Positions 13,372 to 28,554 of a DNA stretch of 64,000 nt are shown one piece after another (within the stretch, counting starts at the first letter, position 1; the number at the start of each line of letters is the position of its first letter). The DNA is taken from contig OY760175.1 in NCBI GenBank assembly GCA_963663165.1, positions 2,816,001 to 2,880,000 of the forward strand, in the 5' to 3' direction. The notes under the pieces were generated by a model, which saw only the letters and a list, made by a program, of their open reading frames with translations, had not been told where the DNA came from and searched no databases. Origin of the DNA: an uncultured Desulfospira sp. GTDB taxonomy: Bacteria > Desulfobacterota > Desulfobacteria > Desulfobacterales > Desulfobacteraceae. The translations under genes were made by a program, and so were the position numbers.

Positions 13372-14172
13372 TTAGGCCTGTTTTCTGCGAAGGCCGGCAA
13401 GACCGATCAGGCCGCCTGACAGTAAAAAGACAGCCGAAGGGACCGGCACGGCACTGGCCGTATTGAGAACAGCAATGGCATCCAGGTCAAACCCGGCGCT
13501 GCCACTTGTCATATAAGGATCGTAGATAACATCTCCGCTAGTGTCTGTGTATGTCCCATCGCCGATAATGTCGATTATCTTGACATAGCTGATGCTGTTA
13601 AAATCCAGGTATTGCAGCTCTTCTTCTGTATATGAATCATAAAGATCGGACAAATCAAAAGGAGTACCGTATCCTTGTTTGTATTTGCCGGCCAGACCGG
13701 TAATATTGGTGGGGTCCACAGATCCAAACGCACTTACACTGCTTGAGGTCTGTGAATCATTGTAGAACCGGTACCAATTTATCCCGTCAGAAGAAACTTC
13801 CACATAGGCAAGTTCCAGAAAAGTGTTATTAAAACTGTTCTCAAAAACGGCAAAGTCATAGCCGTCCCCGTCAGCAATGACCGTATCAAAGGTCAATGTG
13901 ATTGACCCGCCTGCTCCCAGGCAGACAATGTCGTATGAAGAGCCTACCGCCTCACCCAATGCCTTTTCCGGGGTCTGCCAGCTACTAGAAACTCTGTCGC
14001 CGACAATATAGTCCTCATATCCGGTAGCCCAGGCTATGATGGATTCATCAGTCATATAAATTGCAGTGGAACCATCCACTCCGGCTGCTGGGGCATAAGG
14101 TCCCGCCACAGCCGTACCGCAAATCAAAAAAGCAGCCATTAGATTGAGTAGCAATAAAATTTTTCTTGTCAT
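13372..14172 (-). CDS. VPLPA/PEP-CTERM sorting-domain surface protein
   Basis: Signal peptide; C-terminal [30 protein letters not shown] motif. Confidence 0.88.
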
Positions 14173-17022: not shown

Positions 17023-17131
17023 CGTGCAGGGAAATATCCGGGTTAGGCTGAAGGTATTTGAAGCCCCCCAATCCCTTCAGCCTAAATTTTATTATTATCC
17101 CTATCACCCAAACAAAGTGCTGTTAACTACG

Positions 17132-17164
17132 GGCAAGTTACATGCGATCACCCTGACCGGCCCA
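17132..17164 (+). repeat. 33-bp direct repeat, copy 1
   Basis: ggcaagttacatgcgatcaccctgaccggccca, identical at 21487-21519; here it is the left arm of a hairpin ending at 17182. Confidence 0.9.
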
Positions 17165-17455
17165 CAGGGCAATCGCATGTAAAAGAAAGCCATCTATTCC
17201 GCAATTGAAAATAAGGATAATCTCCAATTATGTAGCGTGTTTGATTATGTTGTGAGTTTTATTCATTTTTATTCAAAAAGATTTTTCAAATCTTTCATTT
17301 TATTCGTATAATTCCAAATCATATGCATAGAAAAAGCCCGGAGTAGCCCCTCCGGGCTTTGATTGTGAACTCCCGTCGATAGCCGGAGAAGCCCACACAC
17401 ACAGTTATATTTCTATATCATTTTCCGGTTATCTGCAATACCGGAAAAATCTAAA

Positions 17456-17842
17456 ATGCTTTTAATTCCAAATACATGCCGATGGTGCCATTTCGTATTT
17501 TTTGTTTGCAGGTTCTGCTGGAGAGGGCAGGCCTATTGTTGCAGGGACTGCCGTAAGGCCGGAATCCTCAGAAACAAAAGAGAAGCACAGCGACGATACC
17601 GCCAGACCGAGAAGGGGAAAAGACGGCATCGGGAAGCCGAGAACCGGCGTCGGCATCGAAAAAAAATTCAAGAGACAAAAAACATGGATGATACAGCTTC
17701 CACAGTGCTGCCTGCTTGGTGTAGGACAATAATATTGTGGATTTTGTTTCAGATTCAGGGCCTTCCAATCAAACCATATTGTCAGTTCTGCGGCTCTTCA
17801 GGTCAAGTCGTCACACAATTTCCCCGGCGGGGATATGGATAA
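17456..17842 (+). CDS. Cys-rich, basic hypothetical protein (putative zinc finger)
   Basis: CRWC..CRFC..YCCRDC, Arg-rich helix, C-terminal CQFC. Confidence 0.7.
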   Translation: MLLIPNTCRWCHFVFFVCRFCWRGQAYCCRDCRKAGILRNKREAQRRYRQTEKGKRRHREAENRRRHRKKIQETKNMDDTASTVLPAWCRTIILWILFQIQGLPIKPYCQFCGSSGQVVTQFPRRGYG

Positions 17843-18275
17843 ACGTAAAAACTGGAGGCGCGGCATGGTAAAAAAAGAAATCCTGAACCCTTCAAGGGTG
17901 CGTTGTATCAAAGGAGGATTTAGTTTTATCCCCCATCGGTTTCTTACGGGTGGATTTTTGCGAGCATTAAGCCGGGACGAGTTGTTATTGTATTTTTTCC
18001 TGGTTCTGGCCGGTGACCGCAACGGATTAAGTTTTTACAGTTATGATAAAATATGCACCCTGCTAAAAATGCAACTGGACCAGTACATTGAAGCTCGGGA
18101 TGGATTGATGGAAAATGATCTGATTGCCTTTGACGGCACCATTTACCAGGTGCTTTCCTTACCGGCCAACCTTATACAATCTGCTGTACAAAAAAAATCT
18201 TCCCTGAACAGCCGTCAACCTGAATCAGTTGGAAAAATTTTGAGCAAACTGGTTATGGAGGCCGATCATGGTTGA
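17835..18275 (+). CDS. Putative HTH DNA-binding protein (start may be 17865)
   Basis: GFSFIPHRFL..LLLYFFLVL..GLSFYSYDKIC; overlaps both neighbours. Confidence 0.7.
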   Translation: MDKRKNWRRGMVKKEILNPSRVRCIKGGFSFIPHRFLTGGFLRALSRDELLLYFFLVLAGDRNGLSFYSYDKICTLLKMQLDQYIEARDGLMENDLIAFDGTIYQVLSLPANLIQSAVQKKSSLNSRQPESVGKILSKLVMEADHG

Positions 18276-19185
18276 GCAGACACCCAAAAGTCCGCCCGGT
18301 TATGATCTGGATCAGATCCGCCGGGATTATCTGGACCATATGCTTAAAATCAAGGAAAGCTCTCCTTCTCAAACCTGTTGCAGGACCAAAATTATCAAAG
18401 CGTTTGACAGTTATCTGCAAACATCGGGAGTCTCACTGGTCAATATAAACATAGGGCATGTTGATGATTTTCTGGCAAGGTTCAATGCCCCATATGCAAA
18501 GAGTACCCAGGGGGTATACCGTTCCTGTTTTCGAGGCTTTTTGCACTACCTGTATAATGAACGGCATTTGATCCAACAGAATTTAGCCCCGCTTGTGACC
18601 GGTCCGCCAATGTTTGCTCAAGTCAAGCCTCCTAAATTTTTAAGACCCGGTGAAGTCCGTCAGTTATTTGATCATTTGCCCTGTGCAACATCCAAAGAGC
18701 TTCGTGTCTATGCACAGGTTCACCTGGCTTATTATCTTGGATTGCGCCCCATTGAAATCAGCCGCCTTACTCTGGACGATATCTGTTTTGCCAAAGGACT
18801 GCTAAACCTGGAAAACACAAAAAATGCAAAGCCCCTTCAATTGCCCATTCCCGATGAAGTTATCAAAGCAATCACCGCTTATATCGTTGGAGGCAGGCCT
18901 AAAAGTCAGTCTCGCTCTCTTTTTTTAACCAGCCATTGCCCACCTTACAGAGCTGTAAGTGCCTGGCTCACCAGGCACGATTTAACAAAGGCGTTGCGGG
19001 CTGCCGGTCTTCCCGGTACAGGATATTGGCTGCGCCACACCTTTGCACAAAACATGCTGGAAGCAGGTGCCGGCATTTTTGAAATCAAAGAAATGATGGG
19101 GCATTCCATCATTGATTCCACAAAAGTATATCTAAGTATCCACAAGGAATTGATGCGCCGGGTGTTGTTCGATGAAACCGTTTAA
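18268..19185 (+). CDS. Tyrosine recombinase, first of trio
   Basis: GLRPIEI, YWLRHTFA, MGH, TKVY. Confidence 0.92.
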   Translation: MVEQTPKSPPGYDLDQIRRDYLDHMLKIKESSPSQTCCRTKIIKAFDSYLQTSGVSLVNINIGHVDDFLARFNAPYAKSTQGVYRSCFRGFLHYLYNERHLIQQNLAPLVTGPPMFAQVKPPKFLRPGEVRQLFDHLPCATSKELRVYAQVHLAYYLGLRPIEISRLTLDDICFAKGLLNLENTKNAKPLQLPIPDEVIKAITAYIVGGRPKSQSRSLFLTSHCPPYRAVSAWLTRHDLTKALRAAGLPGTGYWLRHTFAQNMLEAGAGIFEIKEMMGHSIIDSTKVYLSIHKELMRRVLFDETV

Positions 19186-20146
19186 AAGCTTTTTGGCCAC
19201 AGAGATGGAAAACTTTATTGTTTACCGGCAAGGACTGGGATACAGTTGCCATATGCTCCGGTGGGCCTTGCTTACCTTTGACGATTTTTTAATGAGGCAG
19301 CCGGATCTCTCAGACATTTGGATGCCCCATTTTTATATCACCTTTAAAAATGAGATTGGCCTTGAGCCCTCCGGCGTAGCCAGCATTCTAAATGTAGTTC
19401 GAGGCTTTTTTGATTATCTGAAACGGCAGCGGATAAATCTTGATAACCCTTTGAAAGATGTGACCGCTCCGGCCCGACGCACCTTCATCCCCTTTATATT
19501 CTCACCGGAGCAGGTAGAAATGTTACTGGGGGTGGTATGCGGACGGATCCGGCAAACCCCTATGCGGTTCCTTAAAGATTACAGTGAATATCTGGTGATC
19601 CTTCTGCTTGCCCGCTGTGGGCTGAGGATGAATGAACCCTTGCGCCTGAGATTGAAAAATTACCGGCCGGATGAAAAGACGATTTACATAGAGAAAACCA
19701 AGTTCAAAAAGGACCGTCTTATCCCTATTCCAAAATCAACTGCCATGCAGATTGACAACTATCTTTTAACCAGGGCCGCTTTAATTGAAAACGATATGAA
19801 TCCCTACCTGTTCATGGGGATAGGGGAAAACGGCTTGAACGATAACCGTATTCGCTCTGTTTTTCACGATGCTGTGCGTCAAATCGGGATCCGCCGCCCA
19901 AGGAAAATTATCGGCGACACGACCTTTGGGAAGCCCACTCCGCACTGTTTACGGCACTCTTTTGCCATTAACACCTTGAAGGCAGCCATTGCCCGGAAAC
20001 AATCACCCCGGAATGTGCTGCCGGTGCTTGCCGGCTATATGGGTCATGTTGAGTATAAATACACCATGGAATATTTGAAAGCAGTTGATGCTGAAAGCCG
20101 CGACAGCCTGTTCAAATTTACCACCGGCAGAAGGGATGAATCATGA
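19172..20146 (+). CDS. Tyrosine recombinase, second of trio
   Basis: GLRMNE, KTKFKKDRLIP, HCLRHSFA, YMGH..TMEYL. Confidence 0.93.
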   Translation: MKPFKSFLATEMENFIVYRQGLGYSCHMLRWALLTFDDFLMRQPDLSDIWMPHFYITFKNEIGLEPSGVASILNVVRGFFDYLKRQRINLDNPLKDVTAPARRTFIPFIFSPEQVEMLLGVVCGRIRQTPMRFLKDYSEYLVILLLARCGLRMNEPLRLRLKNYRPDEKTIYIEKTKFKKDRLIPIPKSTAMQIDNYLLTRAALIENDMNPYLFMGIGENGLNDNRIRSVFHDAVRQIGIRRPRKIIGDTTFGKPTPHCLRHSFAINTLKAAIARKQSPRNVLPVLAGYMGHVEYKYTMEYLKAVDAESRDSLFKFTTGRRDES

Positions 20147-21162
20147 ACCTGACCCGTTGCGTTGTTCAATTTTTTGACCAATACCTGCCTTATGTCAAAG
20201 GGTGCCGCCCCAATACGATCAAAAGTTACCGGGATACCATGCGCTTTTTTTTACCGTTTGCTGCCGAGTACCACAGCGTAAAGGTCAGTTCGCTCAATCT
20301 GGAACATATCACGGTAGAATTAATTTTGCAGTTTCTCAATGAGCTTGAATCCAAACGGTCCAACACGGCTAAAACCCGGAACCAGCGCCTGGCCGTTTTA
20401 AAGTCTTTTGCCAAAATGATCCGTTTTATTTATCCCGAGCAACAAAAACTGACCAATGCGATCCTTGATATTCCCCGGAAACGAAGCCAACACAAGTTGA
20501 TCGGATTTTTGTATCCCCAGGAGATCAATCAAATCCTTAATGCGGTCCAACTTAAAAGAAAGGACGGGTTCCGAGATTATACCCTTCTGTATCTATTATA
20601 TGATACCGGTGCCAGGGCAACGGAAATCGCTACCCTTGAGATGGATTATTTTGATTATGAAAATCAAACTCTGGCGATTCTTGGGAAGGGTAACCGATAT
20701 CGACAAGTTCAGTTGCTTGGGAAAACAGTAGAGCTTATGCATCAGTATATTGAAGAACATCGCAATACGCCAATCCATCCGTTTAAAAAAAGGCTGTTCA
20801 TCAACCAAAGAGGAACAAGCTTGACCCGCCACGGTATCAACCGGATCTGTAAAAACTACCTTGAACAGGCTTTACCGGCAAAGCGGACAGCGACCATGCA
20901 CCCCGTCCATAGCTTCCGTCATTCGTGTGCCGTTCGAATGCTCTCAGAGGATCGGCCTTTATCTGAAATTAAGAATCGCTTGGGGCATTCTAATGTCAAA
21001 TCCACAATGGTTTACTTAAAGCTTGATCTAGGCCAGAAGCGACATTTACAAGAGAACTTCATCCAGTTCACCAAACAGCACCTGAAATCTGATCCGAAGA
21101 TTGAGGAGTTGATCCAGTGGGAAAACAAGCAAAACGTTCTTGAGTGGCTGGATAGTCTATAG
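20143..21162 (+). CDS. Tyrosine recombinase, third of trio
   Basis: NTIKSYRD, TRNQRLA, GARATE, GKG, HSFRHS, LGH..TMVY. Confidence 0.93.
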   Translation: MNLTRCVVQFFDQYLPYVKGCRPNTIKSYRDTMRFFLPFAAEYHSVKVSSLNLEHITVELILQFLNELESKRSNTAKTRNQRLAVLKSFAKMIRFIYPEQQKLTNAILDIPRKRSQHKLIGFLYPQEINQILNAVQLKRKDGFRDYTLLYLLYDTGARATEIATLEMDYFDYENQTLAILGKGNRYRQVQLLGKTVELMHQYIEEHRNTPIHPFKKRLFINQRGTSLTRHGINRICKNYLEQALPAKRTATMHPVHSFRHSCAVRMLSEDRPLSEIKNRLGHSNVKSTMVYLKLDLGQKRHLQENFIQFTKQHLKSDPKIEELIQWENKQNVLEWLDSL

Positions 21163-21345
21163 ATCCTTACAGACTTCATCACCAGCACTCCTCAGGGCAA
21201 ACTGTAGCTGTTTATTATGTTTAGTGATTTGTTGCAAATTTGTCATACCCTTGATAACCCACTGTTTATTTGAACGATTTTGACTTACGGCATTACGGCG
21301 CCCAAACCACCGTCAATCAAGGCTTCAGGACCGCTCGCAACATAA

Positions 21346-21459
21346 CTCCAAAAAATTGGACTTGGGACTTGGGATATGGGACCTGGGGATTGCGGCATCC
21401 ACGGCCTCCCCAAGTCCCATATCCCATATCCCAAGTCTCAACAATATACATTATTATCC
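21346..21459 (+). repeat. 114-bp hairpin repeat, copy 1
   Basis: Identical to 26966-27079; arms built from ttgggac/tgggata and tcccata/tcccaag heptamers. Confidence 0.95.
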
Positions 21460-21486
21460 TTATCACCAAAATTGGCATCACCAGCA

Positions 21487-21519
21487 GGCAAGTTACATGC
21501 GATCACCCTGACCGGCCCA
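21487..21519 (+). repeat. 33-bp direct repeat, copy 2
   Basis: Identical to 17132-17164. Confidence 0.9.
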
Positions 21520-21591
21520 TCCCCATCCTTGACAAAAACTGAAAACAATGTCAGCTATATGGCATGAGACTCAACCGTTGAGGGGGCCATC

Positions 21592-22308
21592 ATGAAAAAA
21601 CCGGCCATTGTCCTTTTTTTATTGATACTTTCTGTACCGGCCTTGCGTGCCCAGGAAATCACCCTTGTGGCAGGGATGTCGCTTCCGCCCTACTTTTTGC
21701 GGGAAACCCATAACGGTATGGAACATGATATTGTAAAAGAAGCCCTGGCTAAAAGCGGTTATACCCTGACGTTAAAATTTGTCCCTTTTATCCGGCTTGT
21801 TGTTGACTATCCCAAATATGACGGCGCCCTGACCATCAATGAGGCCTCAGGCGCAAAAGGCAGTTATTCCGATGTGGTTATCGTTTACCGGAATTATGCC
21901 ATTTCTCTTAAAGAAAAAAATATATTCATCCATACACTTCAGGACCTGAAAGACAAACGAATTATCGCTTTTCAAAACGCCACGACATATCTTGGGAACG
22001 TTTACAAAACAATTGTAGAGGCCAATCCCCATTACAAGGAAACCGCCGATCAGGAAGGCCAGGTAAAAATGCTCTTTTCCGGCAGAACAGACACGGTGGT
22101 GATGGACCGGAATATTTTCAAATATTTTAGAAAAACAACCACCGGAATGGATACCAGCCCCCAAGTGGTTTACCATAACCTGTTTGAGGCATCGGAATAC
22201 AAAGTCCTGTTTAATGACCCGGTTGTCAGGGACCGATTTAACAAGGGGCTTGCCCAATTAAAGGCATCCGGCCGGTACCAGGAGATCATCAACACCTATG
22301 TCGAATAA
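21592..22308 (+). CDS. Periplasmic substrate-binding protein (family 3-like)
   Basis: Signal peptide, LPPYF, G.EHDIVKEAL, FNKGL..LKASGRY. Confidence 0.85.
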   Translation: MKKPAIVLFLLILSVPALRAQEITLVAGMSLPPYFLRETHNGMEHDIVKEALAKSGYTLTLKFVPFIRLVVDYPKYDGALTINEASGAKGSYSDVVIVYRNYAISLKEKNIFIHTLQDLKDKRIIAFQNATTYLGNVYKTIVEANPHYKETADQEGQVKMLFSGRTDTVVMDRNIFKYFRKTTTGMDTSPQVVYHNLFEASEYKVLFNDPVVRDRFNKGLAQLKASGRYQEIINTYVE

Positions 22309-22311
22309 GGA

Positions 22312-23604
22312 TCACCCCCCGGCAAGGCCGTTGATAATCCGTTCAATCAGGTAAAGGGCACCCTTGGGTCCCATATGGGGTTTGGGAATCACATGCATAT
22401 AGCTTCCGGCAGGAAGGCTGATTTCAATTCCGGCAATGTCCGGATATTTAAGACCGAGCCTGGCGATAAACGCGCCGCTGCCAATAGCGATATCCGGTTT
22501 TACCCGGGCGGTATCTGCCTGCCATGCGTCAAGGCAATTAATGGATGCCAGAAATGCCTGGATTCTTTCCTCAAACAGGCCGGATTCCCCGGTCACCCAC
22601 ACGGAAACCGGCACCAGCCCTAAATACTCATAAAGCCAGACCAGCAGGGGCCAGACCAGGGACCCGTCTGCCGACAGGGCAAAACAGGCCCCCTTGGGAA
22701 GCCCGGTCAGGGTATTAAACCGGTTCAAGGCCGTATAGGCCTGCCTGCGGGCTTTTTGGATCATTTTCAACGCCGGTTCCGGATCCGCATCAAGGCGGCG
22801 GCAGACCAGCTCAATCCATGAGGCAGTGGCCTCAAACCCCACCGGCGCCCCCATGGGCGGCACCATGCTGGCCACGCCCCAATTTTCAGCCATAAACGGG
22901 ACCAGTTCTGTGGCGTATTCTTCGTGGATCACCACATTAAACCTTGCCGAGCCGGCATTTTCAAGTTCTGCCAAGGTACAGCCGGCGCCCATGCAGGTGT
23001 TGACCTGAATGCCGCAGGCATTGAGCAGCCCTTTGAGCTCATCCACATTTCCCTGAAAGTGGTGGTGGGCTATGCTGATTCCCACCAGGTTTACCGTTTT
23101 TTCAGACCAGGCCCGGCGTTTAACGTCAAGGGCCTTTAGCACCCCCATCATCCCGCGCTGAAACCCCTGGGACATGGGCAATGAAAACCCGGCGTTTTCA
23201 ATGGCAACACAAGGAACGGGCAGGCGGGCATTCTGGATAAACCGGTCCAGATCATCGCCGATCAAGGCCGCGCCCGGGGAGTTGACCACGGCAATGAGGC
23301 CATGCCCCTTTGCCGCCACCACGGGCAGGATATCCTCAAGTTTCCCGGTGGCCCCGAACACATAATCATAATCATCCAGAAAGGTGGCCGGGACCCGGGA
23401 CTGGCCAAAATAGAAGGGTTCCGAATAATAGAGCGGGTCCAGCAGGCCGGTCCTTGGCATCTGGCTCTCGCAAAGGGCCCCGTGAAAAAATTTACAGCCC
23501 GTGGGGCCGTTGAGCAGCACTGCCGCATCCCAAATCCCTTCAACGGCGGCAATGGCCCCGGTAAAACTGTCCGGGATCAGTATGGTCCCCTCAAATCCCG
23601 TCAT
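22312..23604 (-). CDS. Nitrogenase component 1-like subunit (K-like)
   Basis: NGPTGC, VFGA..KL, LIGDD, PVGFEAT..W; stop/start overlap with the upstream fusion gene. Confidence 0.85.
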
Positions 23605-25837
23605 TTTTCCATCCTTCAGTTACCGGGGCGCACAGCAGGCCGGCCCAGCGCCGGGCAAAGGCAAGCCCGCTGTAAAAGCCTGTATCCGGGCACATGGGAA
23701 TGATATCCACATGCAGGTCAAAGGGCAGGTTTCGCGGGGTATAGTTCCCCAAAAGCAGGTCCGGCTTTAACCGTAACAGGTCCGGGTCCCGTTTGGCCGG
23801 GTCATAATCCAGCTCCACATCAAACTGCCCGGGATACCGGGTGATGAACCGGTTGTCCTGGGAATAGTTGAGAATCCCCACCTTAACCACGGTCATGCCC
23901 AGGTCCCCGGCCGCCTCAACGATCCAGTCCACATTGTGAATATAGGTAAGGATCATCAGCCGACGCCCTTTGAGCTGTTTGCTGTATGCCCGGATCATCT
24001 GGTCATAGGTTCGCTTATGGGAATCAATCAGGGCCTGCCCTTTATCCCGGCAGTTGAAAAAGTCCGCCACCTGAAGGATCCAGGCCACGGTTTCGGTAAA
24101 CCCCACGGGAAAGGGCAGGTCTGCCGTGGGTACGCCCAAGCGGGATTTCGCAAAATCAGCCATGAGCCTTCCCAGGTAATCATTGTAAGCCGCCAGGTTC
24201 AACGGTGCTTTTTTAAAATGCTTAAGCTGAGCCACCGTGGTGTTTCTGACAAACCGGCAGTTGACCCCGATGCCCATGGACTTGAGAAGCCCTGCCATGG
24301 CGGCAAAGTTGCTCTCGGCATTATAGGCGATATTTTTTTCCGCCAGGATGTTCACACACCGGTCCTCGGGGGTAACGGTTTCATCCACCAGGGCGGCGGC
24401 CCCCTCCATACAGGCATTGATGACCCCCTGCATGTAATCGCCCTGCATATTGCCGTCGGTGGCAATGGGGATCACCGGCACATGGGGATGCCGCTTGTGA
24501 ATATCTGTGATGGCGGCTTTGGGATCATCCCCGATCACCCCGGACGGGCAGGTGGTTAAAAGAAACACGGCCCCGGGCCGGTTTGAGGCGGTATTTTCCA
24601 CCGGCCGGTTCAAGGCCTGTTCGACGGTCTCAATCAGATTTTGTTTACCGCCGTAAATCACTACGGACTCGTCCATATCCGAGGAGACCACGGCCGGTGC
24701 CAGCTGATGGGCAAGGCGTATCTTTTTTTGAGCCTCCAGCCGGAGCCCGGCGGAAAGCACGGCCTGGCAGGCAATGTGGGTGCAGCTGGCCGGCCCGTGG
24801 GCCACGGTCACCGCATCCGTGATCTGGGTGGTGGTGGACAGGGCCCCGGAAAAAGCGCAGCCGTGCAGGGGTTCTCTTGAAATCAGGCTTTTGGATAAAA
24901 ACATGGGGGGCCGGCCAGAACCCTGCTGGTCCCGGGGGTCCCCGGATTGGCCGGCAGGTTCCGGATCTATGGTTTTTTCTTTAATGATGTTAAAGGGGGG
25001 TATCCCGGGGGCCTTATCCGGGCAGACCAGGTTTTCCAGGACGGTTTCATCCAGAAACCGGGCAGGGTAAACCGTCCTGTTCTCCAGGACATCCCGGGCC
25101 AGTTCCTGGAAAATCCAGGCTTCCCTGGAATCGCCAAATGCCTCCACCACGGTTTTTTCCTTCATTTCCGCCTGGCGGAACAGCCGGCTTCTCGGGATGA
25201 TCTGCTTTAAGGGAACCCCCACCTGACCGGCAAACCGCTTCAAAGGGTTACGGCCTTCATCTTCCCCCCGGGAGTTTAAAATCAGGCCGGCCAGCCCCAA
25301 CCCCTCCTGGTCAAAATTTTTCACGCCTTTGAGGATATTATTGGCCGCATAAACAGACATGAATTCCTCAGAGGTAACCACATATACCCGGTCGGCAAAC
25401 CCCCGGCGCAAGGGCACGGCAAAGCCCCCGCAGACCACATCCCCGAGCACATCGTAGACCACGACATCAAAGGCGTCCATGTCAAGCCCTAACCGCTCGA
25501 ACAGGGCAAAGGTGCTTAAAATCCCCCGGCCGGCGCACCCCACCCCGGGTTCAGGCCCGCCGGCTTCGGCACAGACCACCCCGCCAAAGCCCTTGTGAAG
25601 GACCTTGTCCAGGCGCTGCAAGGGGGGCGGCGTTTCTTTCATATAGTCCAGGGCCGTTACAATCCGCCGGCCGCCCAGCAGCAGGCGGGTGGAGTCGTGC
25701 TTGGGATCACACCCGATCTGCAGCACCTTTTTGCCCATGCCGGCCAGGGCGGCGGAAAGATTGGCACAGATGGTGGATTTGCCGATACCGCCTTTTCCAT
25801 ATATGGCGATTTTTATGGCCGGGCTTTGTTGGCCCAT
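23591..25837 (-). CDS. NifH-like Fe protein fused to a nitrogenase component 1 (D-like) domain
   Basis: [46 protein letters not shown]; then [22 protein letters not shown]; start placed at ATG 25837 behind an AGGA RBS. Confidence 0.9.
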
Positions 25838-25859
25838 ATTAAAATTCCTGACAGAACAT

Positions 25860-26840
25860 TTAAGGGGTAACCCCCACCCACCTGCCGTCACGGGCCGATT
25901 TAAGACAGGCCTCACAGATTTGAACAGCGGCCAGGCCCTCTTTGGCCGGGATGGGATTAGGGGCACCGCGCAAAAACTTTTGAAAATCCCCCAGTAACGG
26001 CATAATGGTGTGGACCTGATGTTTAGGGCTTAAGTCCGACAGGGCTTGTCCTTTAACCTTGGTGACCCGGTTATAAATATGGTCGCCCCAGAGCTGCCCC
26101 TTTTCCCCCACGAACTGAAACGATCCGGAACGGGCATGCCCCACCTTTGAACAGTCAACCGTGCCCACCACCCCGTCTTCCATCTCCAGCAGAACGGCCA
26201 GCAGATCCTCAAGGGGGTTTTTCCCATGACAGCGGGTGACGGCCGAGACCCGGACAATTTCCCGGCCGGTGATAAGCCGGAGGGCGTCAAACACATGGAC
26301 TGCGGTATGAAAGCTGACCCCGGCACCGGCAAGTTCCGGGGCATGAAGCCATTCAAGGGTGGCCGGTTCCAGCCGCTGATTGGCAGCAAAACTGAACATG
26401 GGGCCAAGATTTGGCAGTTCTGTTTTCAGTATGCCCACCACCGCATTATACCGCAGGGTATGGCCGACCATGAGATGAAGCCCCTCATGCCGGGAAAGCC
26501 TTTCAATAAACCGGGCATCTTCAAGGCTGCCCGCCAGGGGCTTTTCCAGAAGAAGCGGCTTTTGAGCTTTGGCACAGGCCAGGGCAATGTCCTTGTTCAA
26601 AGCCGGCGGCACCACGGAAATGACGGCATCAACATCATCGGCGACCACCAGTCCCTGCCAGTCACGGTGATACCGGCATTGCCACTGCCCGGCCTGAACA
26701 GCCCCCTTGGCCGAACGGCGGCTGACGGCCTGAAGTAAAAGCCCGGGAATGTCATGAACCAAATGATGGGCATACCGGCTGCCGTGTTTGCCCGTGCCGA
26801 TCACTCCGACGCGCATGGGCCTTATGTTTTCGGTCATCAT
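25860..26840 (-). CDS. Gfo/Idh/MocA family NAD(P)-dependent oxidoreductase
   Basis: [11 protein letters not shown]ossmann motif, LLEKPL, VGHTLRY. Confidence 0.9.
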
Positions 26841-26965
26841 GCCTGTTCTGGCGAGTCCTTTTCACTAGAGCCTGTTTATCGGATTTTCTATGTACAACAG
26901 ACTGAGCCATTTGGCAAATAGCCGGCCCATCGTACTGAGTATAATTTTTAAAAATTAAGAATGAT

Positions 26966-27079
26966 CTCCAAAAAATTGGACTTGGGACTTGGGATATGGG
27001 ACCTGGGGATTGCGGCATCCACGGCCTCCCCAAGTCCCATATCCCATATCCCAAGTCTCAACAATATACATTATTATCC
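26966..27079 (+). repeat. 114-bp hairpin repeat, copy 2 (uninterrupted site)
   Basis: Identical to 21346-21459. Confidence 0.95.
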
Positions 27080-27138
27080 ATACCGACACAACAAACAGTC
27101 GGCGGATATGATAACCCTGCAAGTGCTATGGTGAAGTG

Positions 27139-28554
27139 TTAGATATAAGGGGAAAGCCCCGGGCAAAAGGCTTCAAAGTCGCGGATCCGGGCCTCCATAT
27201 CTTCCGGAAGCGGCTGAGTTTGGGAAGCCGGACCCCCATTCTGCCCTAAGAAAGTTTCAGCAAAGGCCGGGATTTGTTCTGCCTCAAGCATAATGCCGGG
27301 ATGCCGGTTATCCCGTTCAATCACCACCTCTTTGTCCGGGTTCAGGCAGACCACGGCATGGGGATACCGCAACGAAGCAGAGGGCCTCAGTGCTGCGGCA
27401 TTATAGGTGAGCTTTAAGGTCAGGCCGGACAGGTCGCCATGGGGCCAGAGCCTTTGACTTACGGCCACACGATCTCTTTTTTCGGACACATGCCAGTCGG
27501 TTTCCTTCTTTCCCTTTTTTTCAAACCCGTCACAAAGGGTCTGGACCAGGCCGGGATCGCCACAAAATTCCATGGTCCGGATGTATCCGGGTTGGGTTAT
27601 GTCTTCCCAGGGGTAGGCCACCATTGAGCCGTTGCGCCGTCTTGCCGCCGCCTTCTGGAACTGGTTGCGGAAGGTAAAAGAGCAGTAGTTGACCGGCAGC
27701 AAAATTTGTTCTTCCAGTGCATGGAGAACAAGGGACAATGCGGTCAGTTCCGTTTCAAGGACGGCCGTTCCCGGCCCATGAAGAAAGGTATACCCCCGGT
27801 TGATGAGTTTGGGGGTGTTAAACGGGGTACAGCGGATCTGGTGAAGGTTTAAAAAATTGACCCCGGTGTCGGCAAGGACCTTCAGCAACGGTTTTGTTTT
27901 TTCCAGGTCTTCGGGAATGGCCGGGATTTCAACGGTGACAATGGGAATGATCCCGACGGCTTTTTTCAGGCTGTTCAGATGATAATCCACAGCAGACAGG
28001 TCAAAGCGTATTTCCTTAAGACCGTTGTCCCGGAGGGCCTTGAGCCGGTCGGAGCTGGCCAGAATGCCGTTGGTATACATCCAGGTGTGAAGGGGCGATT
28101 TCACCTGTTCCCCAAGCGCCTTGAGAAAAGCGACCACCCGGTCAAGGGTCATGAGGGGTTCTCCGCCGCTGAACCCCACCCCCTGAATATCAAACCGCTT
28201 CACATAATCGGCATAGTCCCGGGGTTGGTCAAACTCTACCGAACTTGTGATGGGAACGCCCGGCTCTTTTTGGGGGGCGGGGCAGTAAAAACAGCCCGCA
28301 TTGCAGATGCCGTTGATAAACAGGCAGGACCATTTTCCCTGGCCGCACAGGGCACAGCCCGGAGACATGCCGTGGGCAAACAGCTTGGTCCCTTCAAAGG
28401 CCCATCCGGCCTTAGCGTCCTGCTGGTCAAATATCCGGCCAAGCAGCTCCTCACGATACTGCTCGGCTGCCCGGGCTGCTCCGGCCGAAAGCCAGTGCAT
28501 GGTCTGGTACAATCCGGGGAATTCCCTGCGGGTACGGTTAATCCAGGGGTTCAT
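27139..28554 (-). CDS. Radical SAM protein of unknown function
   Basis: CNAGCFYC, SGGEP, YTNG, EIRF; extra N-terminal PGCALC. Confidence 0.9.
   Translation of the reverse strand: MNPWINRTRREFPGLYQTMHWLSAGAARAAEQYREELLGRIFDQQDAKAGWAFEGTKLFAHGMSPGCALCGQGKWSCLFINGICNAGCFYCPAPQKEPGVPITSSVEFDQPRDYADYVKRFDIQGVGFSGGEPLMTLDRVVAFLKALGEQVKSPLHTWMYTNGILASSDRLKALRDNGLKEIRFDLSAVDYHLNSLKKAVGIIPIVTVEIPAIPEDLEKTKPLLKVLADTGVNFLNLHQIRCTPFNTPKLINRGYTFLHGPGTAVLETELTALSLVLHALEEQILLPVNYCSFTFRNQFQKAAARRRNGSMVAYPWEDITQPGYIRTMEFCGDPGLVQTLCDGFEKKGKKETDWHVSEKRDRVAVSQRLWPHGDLSGLTLKLTYNAAALRPSASLRYPHAVVCLNPDKEVVIERDNRHPGIMLEAEQIPAFAETFLGQNGGPASQTQPLPEDMEARIRDFEAFCPGLSPYI

Follow-up and report, generated by a model that had tools for sequence, protein, structure and literature searches.

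Introduction

Passages of a 2026 review of nitrogenase-like enzymes (PMC13474568) describe the Fe protein as acting as a homodimer and DPOR (BchL/BchN/BchB), COR (BchX/BchY/BchZ) and CfbCD (Group IV-B) as reducing tetrapyrroles via a single [4Fe-4S] cluster, with a proposed 3 + 1 cysteine pattern in COR. Few nitrogenase-like enzymes have an assigned substrate, and the same passages regard gene context as being of little help in identifying substrates. A fused nifH-nifE-like gene accompanied by a nifN-like gene was mentioned by Dos Santos 2012 (PMC3464626) for Archaea, Firmicutes and Deltaproteobacteria; in the parts of that article available here, the set receives one sentence marked 'data not shown', with no function, cysteine pattern, clade, B12 link or locus names. 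The system analyzed here, which is identified with that set by its layout and taxa, lies in a 64,000-nt stretch of DNA, henceforth referred to as the window (contig OY760175.1 of assembly GCA_963663165.1, positions 2,816,001 to 2,880,000), from an uncultured Desulfospira sp., a bacterium of the sulfate-reducer type. It consists of a nitrogenase-like Fe protein fused to a component-1 (D-like) domain, henceforth referred to as the HD fusion, and an overlapping gene for a K-like partner.

The HD fusion and its partner form a real, widespread and uncharacterised clade within the known nitrogenase superfamily. The enzyme is proposed to be an ATP-driven [4Fe-4S] reductase of a salvaged corrinoid, with a probability of about 0.6 and with the substrate suggested by gene context. 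That context, the cobalamin riboswitches and corrinoid-salvage genes of the fusion family, gives a short testable list of substrates (corrinoids and their precursors). It was missed by an earlier note on this DNA, made from the sequence alone, which had described a non-N2 nitrogenase-like reductase and had named phylogeny, neighbourhood conservation and structure prediction as checks.

The layout has been known since 2012 in one sentence, and no study of the fusion was found. Term searches of the available text of PMC13474568, PMC13753814, PMC11423573, PMC4285132, PMC10418091, PMC13759103, PMC10846266 and bioRxiv 10.64898/2026.08.20.746119 returned no description of it. In the searched text of the 2026 review (PMC13474568), neither 'fused' nor 'fusion' occurs and a corrinoid role is not mentioned, and PMC4153887 gives a fused nifH/nifE only as a table mention. 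No published link between the HD fusion and B12 was found in a search of mostly open-access main texts; supplements lay outside the search, and the HD-fusion clade could be contained in Additional file 4 of Dos Santos 2012 or in the PMC13753814 tree files.

Gene layout and conserved motifs

The system occupies the minus strand of the window as listed below.

23591..25837, minus strand: NflH-NflD fusion gene, 748 aa, start ATG at 25837, PF00142 + PF00148
25028..25816, minus strand: Fe-protein (NifH-like) ATPase domain, residues ~8-270, PF00142, with P-loop, switch I/II, Cys101 and Cys136
24902..25021, minus strand: flexible linker, residues ~273-312 (predicted local distance difference test score, pLDDT, <50 for residues 273-325)
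23594..24901, minus strand: component-1 (D-like) domain with Cys327, Cys352 and Cys430, without the FeMo-co Cys or His
22312..23604, minus strand: K-like partner gene, 430 aa, PF00148, with Asp12, Cys37 and Pro110

The start of the fusion was placed at ATG 25837; the upstream GTG at 25966 given by the open reading frame (ORF) finder would overlap the Gfo/Idh/MocA oxidoreductase gene. The fusion matches PF00142 (E 6e-90) and PF00148 (E 7e-67), and the K-like gene, which overlaps it by 14 nt, matches PF00148 (E 3e-51). The reading frame of the fusion is unbroken. Positions 21490-26993 and 21490-26985 are covered with zero differences by two single contigs, 5504 and 5496 nt long, that come from sequencing runs of two studies; one of these may derive from the source sample. 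The NifH-D fusion and overlapping K-like gene described by the earlier note were thus confirmed by ORFs, Pfam and contigs. An assembly artefact, which according to that note would refute its reading, was ruled out by the identical single contigs spanning the block and by the in-frame fusion across relatives. K relatives are encoded at 160 genome loci, of which the best 80 serve as the related loci here; in 76 of these, H reads in frame into D directly upstream of K, and the other 4 are cut by contig ends. One of the 76 fused loci (L100) has its D broken further on. An apparent H-D-K triple fusion in L037 was rejected as a shadow ORF.

The Fe-protein domain keeps the P-loop, the switch residues and the cluster residues Cys101 and Cys136, and these key residues are kept in 75 of 76 loci, the remaining one being truncated by a contig end. 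The D domain carries Cys327 (HGCAF), Cys352 (GPASC) and Cys430 (TTCP), all three kept in 76/76 related loci, and the K-like gene carries Cys37 in the motif NGPTGC. By alignment, the K residues at the three beta P-cluster columns are Asp12, Cys37 and Pro110; Cys37 aligns with a BchZ cysteine and, like Asp12, is kept in 79/80 loci. The P-cluster cysteines accordingly number three (D) plus one (K), compared to three alpha plus three beta in nitrogenase. In alignment with NifD, the nitrogenase Cys275 column is occupied by Tyr551 of the fusion (2/76 relatives have Cys there), and the His442 column falls in IIPM, without a His. All motifs listed in the earlier note (P-loop, switches, both cluster Cys, HGCAF, GPASC, TTCP and NGPTGC) were present, and the absence of the FeMo-co Cys that it had reported holds, with Tyr551 at that column and no equivalent of His442. 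Cys527 of the fusion is kept in 74/76 loci, and the linker ranges from 27 to 107 residues in 77 sequences. Cys716 was invariant in a first 25-row alignment and is not proposed as a ligand because it is kept in only 49/76 loci.

Predicted structures

The AlphaFold model of the fusion has a mean pLDDT of 80.5, with residues 273-325 predicted to be disordered (pLDDT <50). The H-domain model superimposes on NifH with Z 36.6 and a root-mean-square deviation (rmsd) of 2.1 A over 266 residues, while the D-domain model is about equally close to MarD and BchB (Z 27.9 and 27.0). The K model (mean pLDDT 83.5) matches BchB of DPOR best (Z 38.2, rmsd 2.7 A, 388 residues), followed by MarK (Z 34.7) and ChlB (Z 34.6). 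Foldseek with the whole fusion returned only Fe proteins, an ESM Atlas search returned PF00148 clusters only, and no CfbD or Isr chain was among the matches listed in the structure searches.

Prediction of the D-K complex gave a score of 0.81 against 0.00 for the best of three controls, with contact agreement between runs of at least 72% and partner pLDDT of at least 87; the mark for this score was reached by 116/157 solved pairs compared to 2/215 mismatched pairs. This pass demonstrates likeness rather than binding, because like complexes have already been solved. Cys327, Cys352, Cys430 and K Cys37 all lie within the predicted D-K interface. The structure check named in the earlier note thus returned a modelled D-K association with four interface cysteines, and the COR-like 3 + 1 cysteine site proposed there is supported by the BchZ-aligned Cys37, by the predicted interface and by conservation. 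Taken together, alignments and models show an intact, predicted ATP-binding Fe-protein domain and a D-K component-1 pair with a putative 3 + 1 Cys interface and no FeMo-co ligands.

Family distribution and phylogeny

A search with the D domain gave 231 matches among 8000 candidates, and 117 of the 120 homologues listed contain both Pfam domains. According to record titles, carriers of the fusion belong to Desulfobacterota, Bacillota, Bacteroidota, Spirochaetota, Chloroflexota, Actinomycetota, Proteobacteria and Methanosarcinales; cultured carriers include Desulforapulum autotrophicum, Desulfocicer vacuolatum, Clostridium tetanomorphum and Methanosarcina. Within the bacterial family of the host the distribution is patchy, with the fusion present in 11/161 genomes and absent from the two of the same genus.

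The component-1 tree was built from 108 rows, 11 of 119 having been dropped as fragments. A single branch (SH-aLRT 100) unites all fused D domains (42/42) with 17 rows that are unfused or cut, separate from NifD/E, NifK/N, Bch, CfbD and a MarD-like pair, and the K family forms a branch of its own; deep branches of this tree are weak, and CfbD is represented by a single long-branch row. The H tree places 27/29 fused H domains, including the Desulfospira copy, in a clade (100/99) that excludes NifH, CfbC and BchL/X. The tree labels cover Nif, Cfb, Bch and MarD-like proteins, and unlabelled rows could be IsrHDK (IV-F), NfaHDK (IV-A), IV-D/E or VI. Neither the fusion nor the K-like protein reaches any NCBIfam family cut-off: the best component-1 model for the D domain is NifE (121 bits, cut-off 505) and the best model for the H domain is CfbC (320 bits, cut-off 402). 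Phylogeny, as named in the earlier note, therefore placed the domains outside the Nif, Cfb, Bch and MarD-like clades, and the claim of a non-N2 reductase outside the characterised clades gained support from the missing FeMo-co ligands, the scores and the trees. No NifB match was found in 16/51 carrier genomes, many of them incomplete.

A single metagenomic sequence of 1081 aa (P0281), the D part of which departs from the fusion-family motifs, is a tandem H-H-D fusion. Both of its H domains keep the cluster cysteines, making it a natural single-chain Fe-protein dimer.

Comparison with characterised systems

The system differs from nitrogenase and NifEN in lacking counterparts of the FeMo-co ligands alpha-Cys275 and alpha-His442 and in having 3 + 1 rather than six P-cluster cysteines. 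Scores against the nitrogenase models are below their cut-offs (nifH 309/394, nifD 91/654, nifE 121/505, nifK 35/427; score/cut-off, as in the pairs below), and fusion and K lie outside the NifD/E, NifK/N and NifH clades.

With the Group V enzymes COR and DPOR, the system shares the absence of FeMo-co ligands and the arrangement of three Cys and one partner ligand at the second position. The closer likeness in this respect is to COR, in which the partner ligand at the position of the BchB Asp is a Cys and the BchZ Cys column corresponds to Cys37, whereas the fourth ligand of BchB in DPOR is Asp. The model scores, well short of every Bch cut-off (BchX 208/331 and BchZ 35/529; BchL 198/345, BchN 41/324 and BchB 62/490), and separate clades nevertheless set the fusion apart from COR, and DPOR likewise scores low although the K model folds most like BchB. 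The Fe protein of the fusion is joined to D, and the carriers are mostly non-phototrophs; two phototroph-type carriers have their own Bch sets beside the fusion.

CfbCD provides the precedent for ATP-driven reduction of a metallo-tetrapyrrole by simple [4Fe-4S] clusters, which by analogy may also apply to the fusion. It has one component-1 subunit, whereas the fusion system has two different ones; CfbC scores 320/402, CfbD 29/268 with the D domain and 34/268 with the K-like protein, and CfbD, represented by one long-branch row, falls outside the fused clade. Methanosarcina has true CfbCD elsewhere in its genome. The fold is also shared with MarHDK methylthio-alkane reductase (Group IV-C), and of the solved structures it is MarK that gives the K family its highest sequence-profile score (117 bits). 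MarD, however, gives 63 bits with the fusion D domain compared to 453 with a true relative, only 4/6 P-cluster cysteines are present in fusion and K, no NifB-type gene occurs among the scanned neighbours, and the MarD-like rows lie apart from the fused clade, the MarD-like identity having been checked for one of them (P0370).

Vitamin B12 context of related loci

Neighbouring genes and RNA elements of the 80 related loci were scanned with Pfam (254/377 neighbour clusters) and Rfam (72/80 loci, leaving out 8 archaeal loci). A cobalamin-class riboswitch was found in 22/72 loci. For the 41 bacterial loci with genome-wide counts, a riboswitch is present in 16 against a chance expectation of 1.5, which would be 3.0-4.3 if the genome-wide counts were two to three times too low; at most 47 candidates were scored per genome, and kin are not independent. 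Random 16-kb windows of the host genome contain a cobalamin riboswitch in 1.5% of cases. In two Chloroflexaceae and one Solibacteraceae (L053, L080, L098) the riboswitch stands directly before the fusion, ~140-180 nt from its start, and in L024, L026, L034, L037, L044, L046, L069 and L091 it heads a same-strand run into the fusion.

Corrinoid-specific genes (CobN/ChlID, CbiK, CbiZ, CbiR, CobA, CobT/U/S) flank 18/80 loci, and a riboswitch or a corrinoid gene is present at 32/80. CobN-like proteins flank 8/80 loci, CbiK 5, BtuR 4 and PduO 2. The gene order in Methanolobus L064 is CbiZ-ChlI-ChlD-importer-HD-K-CbiK-CobN, and CobN, ChlI/D and CbiZ are near the fusion also in Marinifilaceae L066 and Desulfosarcina L033, a module that recurs across domains. 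Locus L046 reads riboswitch-...-CobD-CbiB-CbiR-Dph6-like-HD-K-BtuR and Spirochaetaceae L099 reads PduO-importer-HD-K-CobU-CbiR-CobT-CobS, with both CbiR proteins above the NCBIfam cut-off. Among 50 carrier genomes tested, CbiD was found in 40, CbiJ in 15, CbiZ in 34, and CbiD and CbiJ together in 14.

Several observations weigh against a corrinoid substrate. The Desulfospira window has zero Rfam matches and no B12 neighbours, and the nearest of eight cobalamin riboswitches in the host genome is 357 kb from the fusion. No riboswitch or corrinoid gene was found at 48/80 loci, including the close relatives L027-L031; short contigs, the 8 unscanned archaeal loci and the 123/377 unscanned clusters explain only part of these. 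The positive counts overstate independence, because some loci are kin or from the same genome (L050/L052/L059; L064/L068/L070; L053/L054/L080). Neighbouring receptors and binding proteins miss the BtuB and BtuF cut-offs, and for two of three neighbouring TonB receptors the best-scoring models are those for heme or siderophores. The 40/50 carrier genomes with CbiD can make corrins de novo, so that these carriers do not depend on salvage. A stand-alone CbiZ is missing from the host genome and from 6/11 carriers of its bacterial family; a close-query search matched 14/161 family genomes, of which 5 belong to the 11 carriers (this overlap is weak and confounded by kinship), and a distant-query search at E 1e-60 gave 0/161 with a query too distant to be informative. 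Additionally, riboswitches of this class also control B12-independent enzymes and cobalt uptake. The Desulfospira copy has lost the riboswitch and the B12 neighbours and is a poorer example of the fusion family than other loci.

Further arrangements were seen at individual loci. A PF01902 diphthine-ammonia-ligase-like ATPase, possibly a corrinoid amidation or repair enzyme, is encoded near or directly before the fusion in the B12 loci L043, L046, L050, L052 and L059. One Marinisporobacter genome has two HD-K copies (L052, L059), and a cobalamin riboswitch and DUF4430/S-layer genes follow each copy. In Syntrophomonadaceae (L056-L058), LarE/LarB/LarC-like genes and an importer of the Fur-Znu type lie shortly downstream of the HD-K pair, and in two Methanosarcina records (L081, L087) the pair is convergent with mcrA.

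Proposed function

By comparison with DPOR, COR and CfbCD, two tethered H domains would pair to form one Fe-protein dimer per (HD-K)2, which would serve one side at a time or link tetramers; the tandem H domains of P0281 would give each D its own Fe-protein dimer. ATP hydrolysis would deliver low-potential electrons to the single interface [4Fe-4S] cluster, which in turn would reduce a tetrapyrrole seated in the cleft that holds FeMo-co in nitrogenase. As suggested by gene context, the substrate would be a scavenged corrinoid, incomplete or oxidised, that is imported, has its tail removed by CbiZ or CbiR and its metal inserted by CobN with ChlI/D or by CbiK, and is adenosylated by CobA or PduO. 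Part of PMC7242693 states that CobN-type chelatases use a cobalt-free ring and that cobalt must then be reduced before adenosylation.

Within the corrinoid reading, reduction of the macrocycle is a tentative option, put forward because tetrapyrrole reduction is the precedent in the family. That the enzyme reduces cobalt or takes off the upper ligand ahead of adenosylation was considered because adenosyltransferases (BtuR, PduO) neighbour the fusion, and appears rather unlikely. It is possible, at somewhat less than even odds, that B12 metabolism has in this clade its first nitrogenase-like enzyme. The tethered reductase would then use ATP in a salvage pathway not described so far, which would run from import through CbiZ/CbiR, CobN with ChlI/D and reduction to adenosylation and would restore cobalt-free, oxidised or otherwise damaged corrinoids in anaerobic bacteria and methanogens; the tether would force one Fe-protein dimer per (HD-K)2, a constraint escaped by the tandem-H relative. 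If true, the nitrogenase family would gain a fourth tetrapyrrole pathway besides those of chlorophyll, bacteriochlorophyll and F430, and the cobamide exchange of anoxic communities would gain a new step. The system could also serve as an easy model for ATP-coupled electron transfer because it comprises two genes, is apparently NifB-independent and has a natural Fe-protein tether.

Alternative explanations and neighbouring genes

Of the other functions weighed, scavenging of cobalt or iron, in which the reductase and a CobN-like de-chelatase would free or exchange the metal bound in an imported chelate or tetrapyrrole and B12 control would reflect cobalt supply, is improbable. The CobN-like proteins (8/80 loci) and CbiK (5), the CbiQ, NicO and Fur/Znu-type genes at a few loci and the heme or siderophore preference of 2/3 neighbouring TonB receptors would suit it, as would CobN-like HmuS, which according to part of PMC12583661 takes iron from heme and requires a reductant. 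HmuS as described there works without ATP, however, and the one neighbouring CobN examined passes the cobaltochelatase cut-off (997 vs 822) as well as that of BchH (846 vs 829). Several CobN occur with ChlI/ChlD, which fits ATP-driven insertion, and CbiZ, CbiR, CbiB, CobU/S/T and the adenosyltransferases indicate an intact corrinoid. Cobalamin riboswitches control B12-independent isoenzymes, and with a riboswitch directly before the fusion in L053, L080 and L098, the enzyme might be a B12-independent substitute for a B12-dependent enzyme, induced when cobalamin is scarce. This is quite unlikely: the fusion sits among import, chelatase and salvage genes, even in switch-less archaea, and no B12-dependent enzyme family recurs next to it. 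A role in de novo corrin synthesis, where the enzyme would take the place of the cobalt-precorrin-6A reductase CbiJ, would agree with the failure to find CbiJ in 26/40 CbiD-positive carrier genomes. That role is mostly rejected and is given very little credence because the other 14 have both CbiD and CbiJ; the absence of CbiJ tracks taxonomy, the fusion occurs in only 11/161 family genomes, and ring-contraction genes were not seen among the scanned neighbours. The labels NifH1 or NifEH given to homologues by database sources and the NifE model as the best for the D domain among component-1 models (121 bits) point to a NifEN-like scaffold or nitrogen-fixation accessory, and the fused clade, a deep one, may comprise more than one function, so that the Desulfospira copy might not be corrinoid-related. 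The chance of either is slight, as 121 bits compares with a cut-off of 505, the host has its own nifE/N/B 2.5 Mb away, and carriers such as Clostridium tetanomorphum show neither nif component-1 genes nor a NifB match. The fusion is nonetheless a trap for nitrogen-fixation surveys; in part of one genome paper (PMC10536192), a nifEH-labelled gene, identified here by its label, is used as evidence of diazotrophy.

The remaining alternative concerns the genes beside the fusion in the window.

25860..26840, minus strand: Gfo/Idh/MocA oxidoreductase gene, 22 bp upstream of the fusion, not a conserved partner
26949..27103, no strand assigned: short intergenic repeat between the radical SAM gene and Gfo (blastn; second copy ~21346-21462)
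27139..28554, minus strand: radical SAM gene, outside the system, common in the bacterial family and independent of the reductase

The earlier note had suggested that the reductase possibly acts together with the Gfo/Idh/MocA enzyme and the nearby radical SAM protein; in the form weighed here, the three would share one small substrate. Gfo and fusion are on the same strand, with a ribosome-binding-like CAGGA in the 22-bp gap between the Gfo stop (25860) and the fusion ATG; this spacing suggests that the two are probably co-transcribed in the Desulfospira genome, and the Desulfospira copy is probably read from the Gfo promoter. Promoter and terminator scans of the window did not exceed shuffled background (6 vs 6.4 and 13 vs 13.2), and no RNA data set was listed as containing the locus. 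In the sister genome (G113), a degraded 51-nt Gfo remnant adjoins the radical SAM gene, which argues that the Gfo-radical SAM pair is older than the Desulfospira strain. A joint pathway is nevertheless scarcely tenable. The Gfo, radical SAM and solute-binding proteins of the window gave zero tblastn matches in 90 related loci, so that the neighbourhood-conservation check named in the earlier note yielded either enzyme in 0/90 loci. Gfo was found in 0/160 other genomes of the host's bacterial family, including all 10 fusion carriers, and its named closest relatives are Desulfobulbaceae-type. The radical SAM gene is present in 72/160 family genomes, located elsewhere and mostly without the fusion, and this disagreement in distribution largely refutes the joint pathway. 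The proposed pathway is best viewed as local juxtaposition, because neither gene recurs at related loci.

Host genome and mobile sequences

The host genome (6.74 Mb, one contig) holds a complete Mo-nitrogenase cluster, with NifH, D, K and E over the NCBIfam cut-offs, an N-like gene and NifB, its nifE/N/B being 2.5 Mb from the fusion. A second, unrelated nitrogenase-like H-D-K set is located at ~1.752-1.761 Mb (L001 4947-13658; G000:C1) and runs with an aspartase-like gene, a HydF-like GTPase (by eye) and HydE; a NiFe large-subunit-like ORF in the same run is broken-looking or divergent, and nifU/nifS-like genes adjoin. With these two sets in the host, the fusion is not a remnant of the host nif genes. 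The term 'orphan' in the earlier note thus holds within the window but not genome-wide.

Synteny with the sister genome extends on both sides of the block, which is replaced there by a Cache-GGDEF gene and the degraded Gfo piece. GC content at third codon positions (GC3) is 0.70 for the fusion compared to 0.64-0.66 for resident genes. The solute-binding gene and the K-HD-Gfo block are bracketed by the copies of the short intergenic repeat (26949-27103 and ~21346-21462), which has 116 blastn matches in the host genome and many in the sister genome. At window positions 17023-21344, three tandem tyrosine recombinases and two small ORFs form an element, which we take to be RIT-like, with 8 near-identical genome copies; these copies and its absence from the syntenic site of the sister genome indicate recent mobility. 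Positions 13372-14172 encode a 266-aa exported-looking protein without a Pfam match, the tail of which, ending in RRK, resembles by eye a PEP-CTERM sorting signal.

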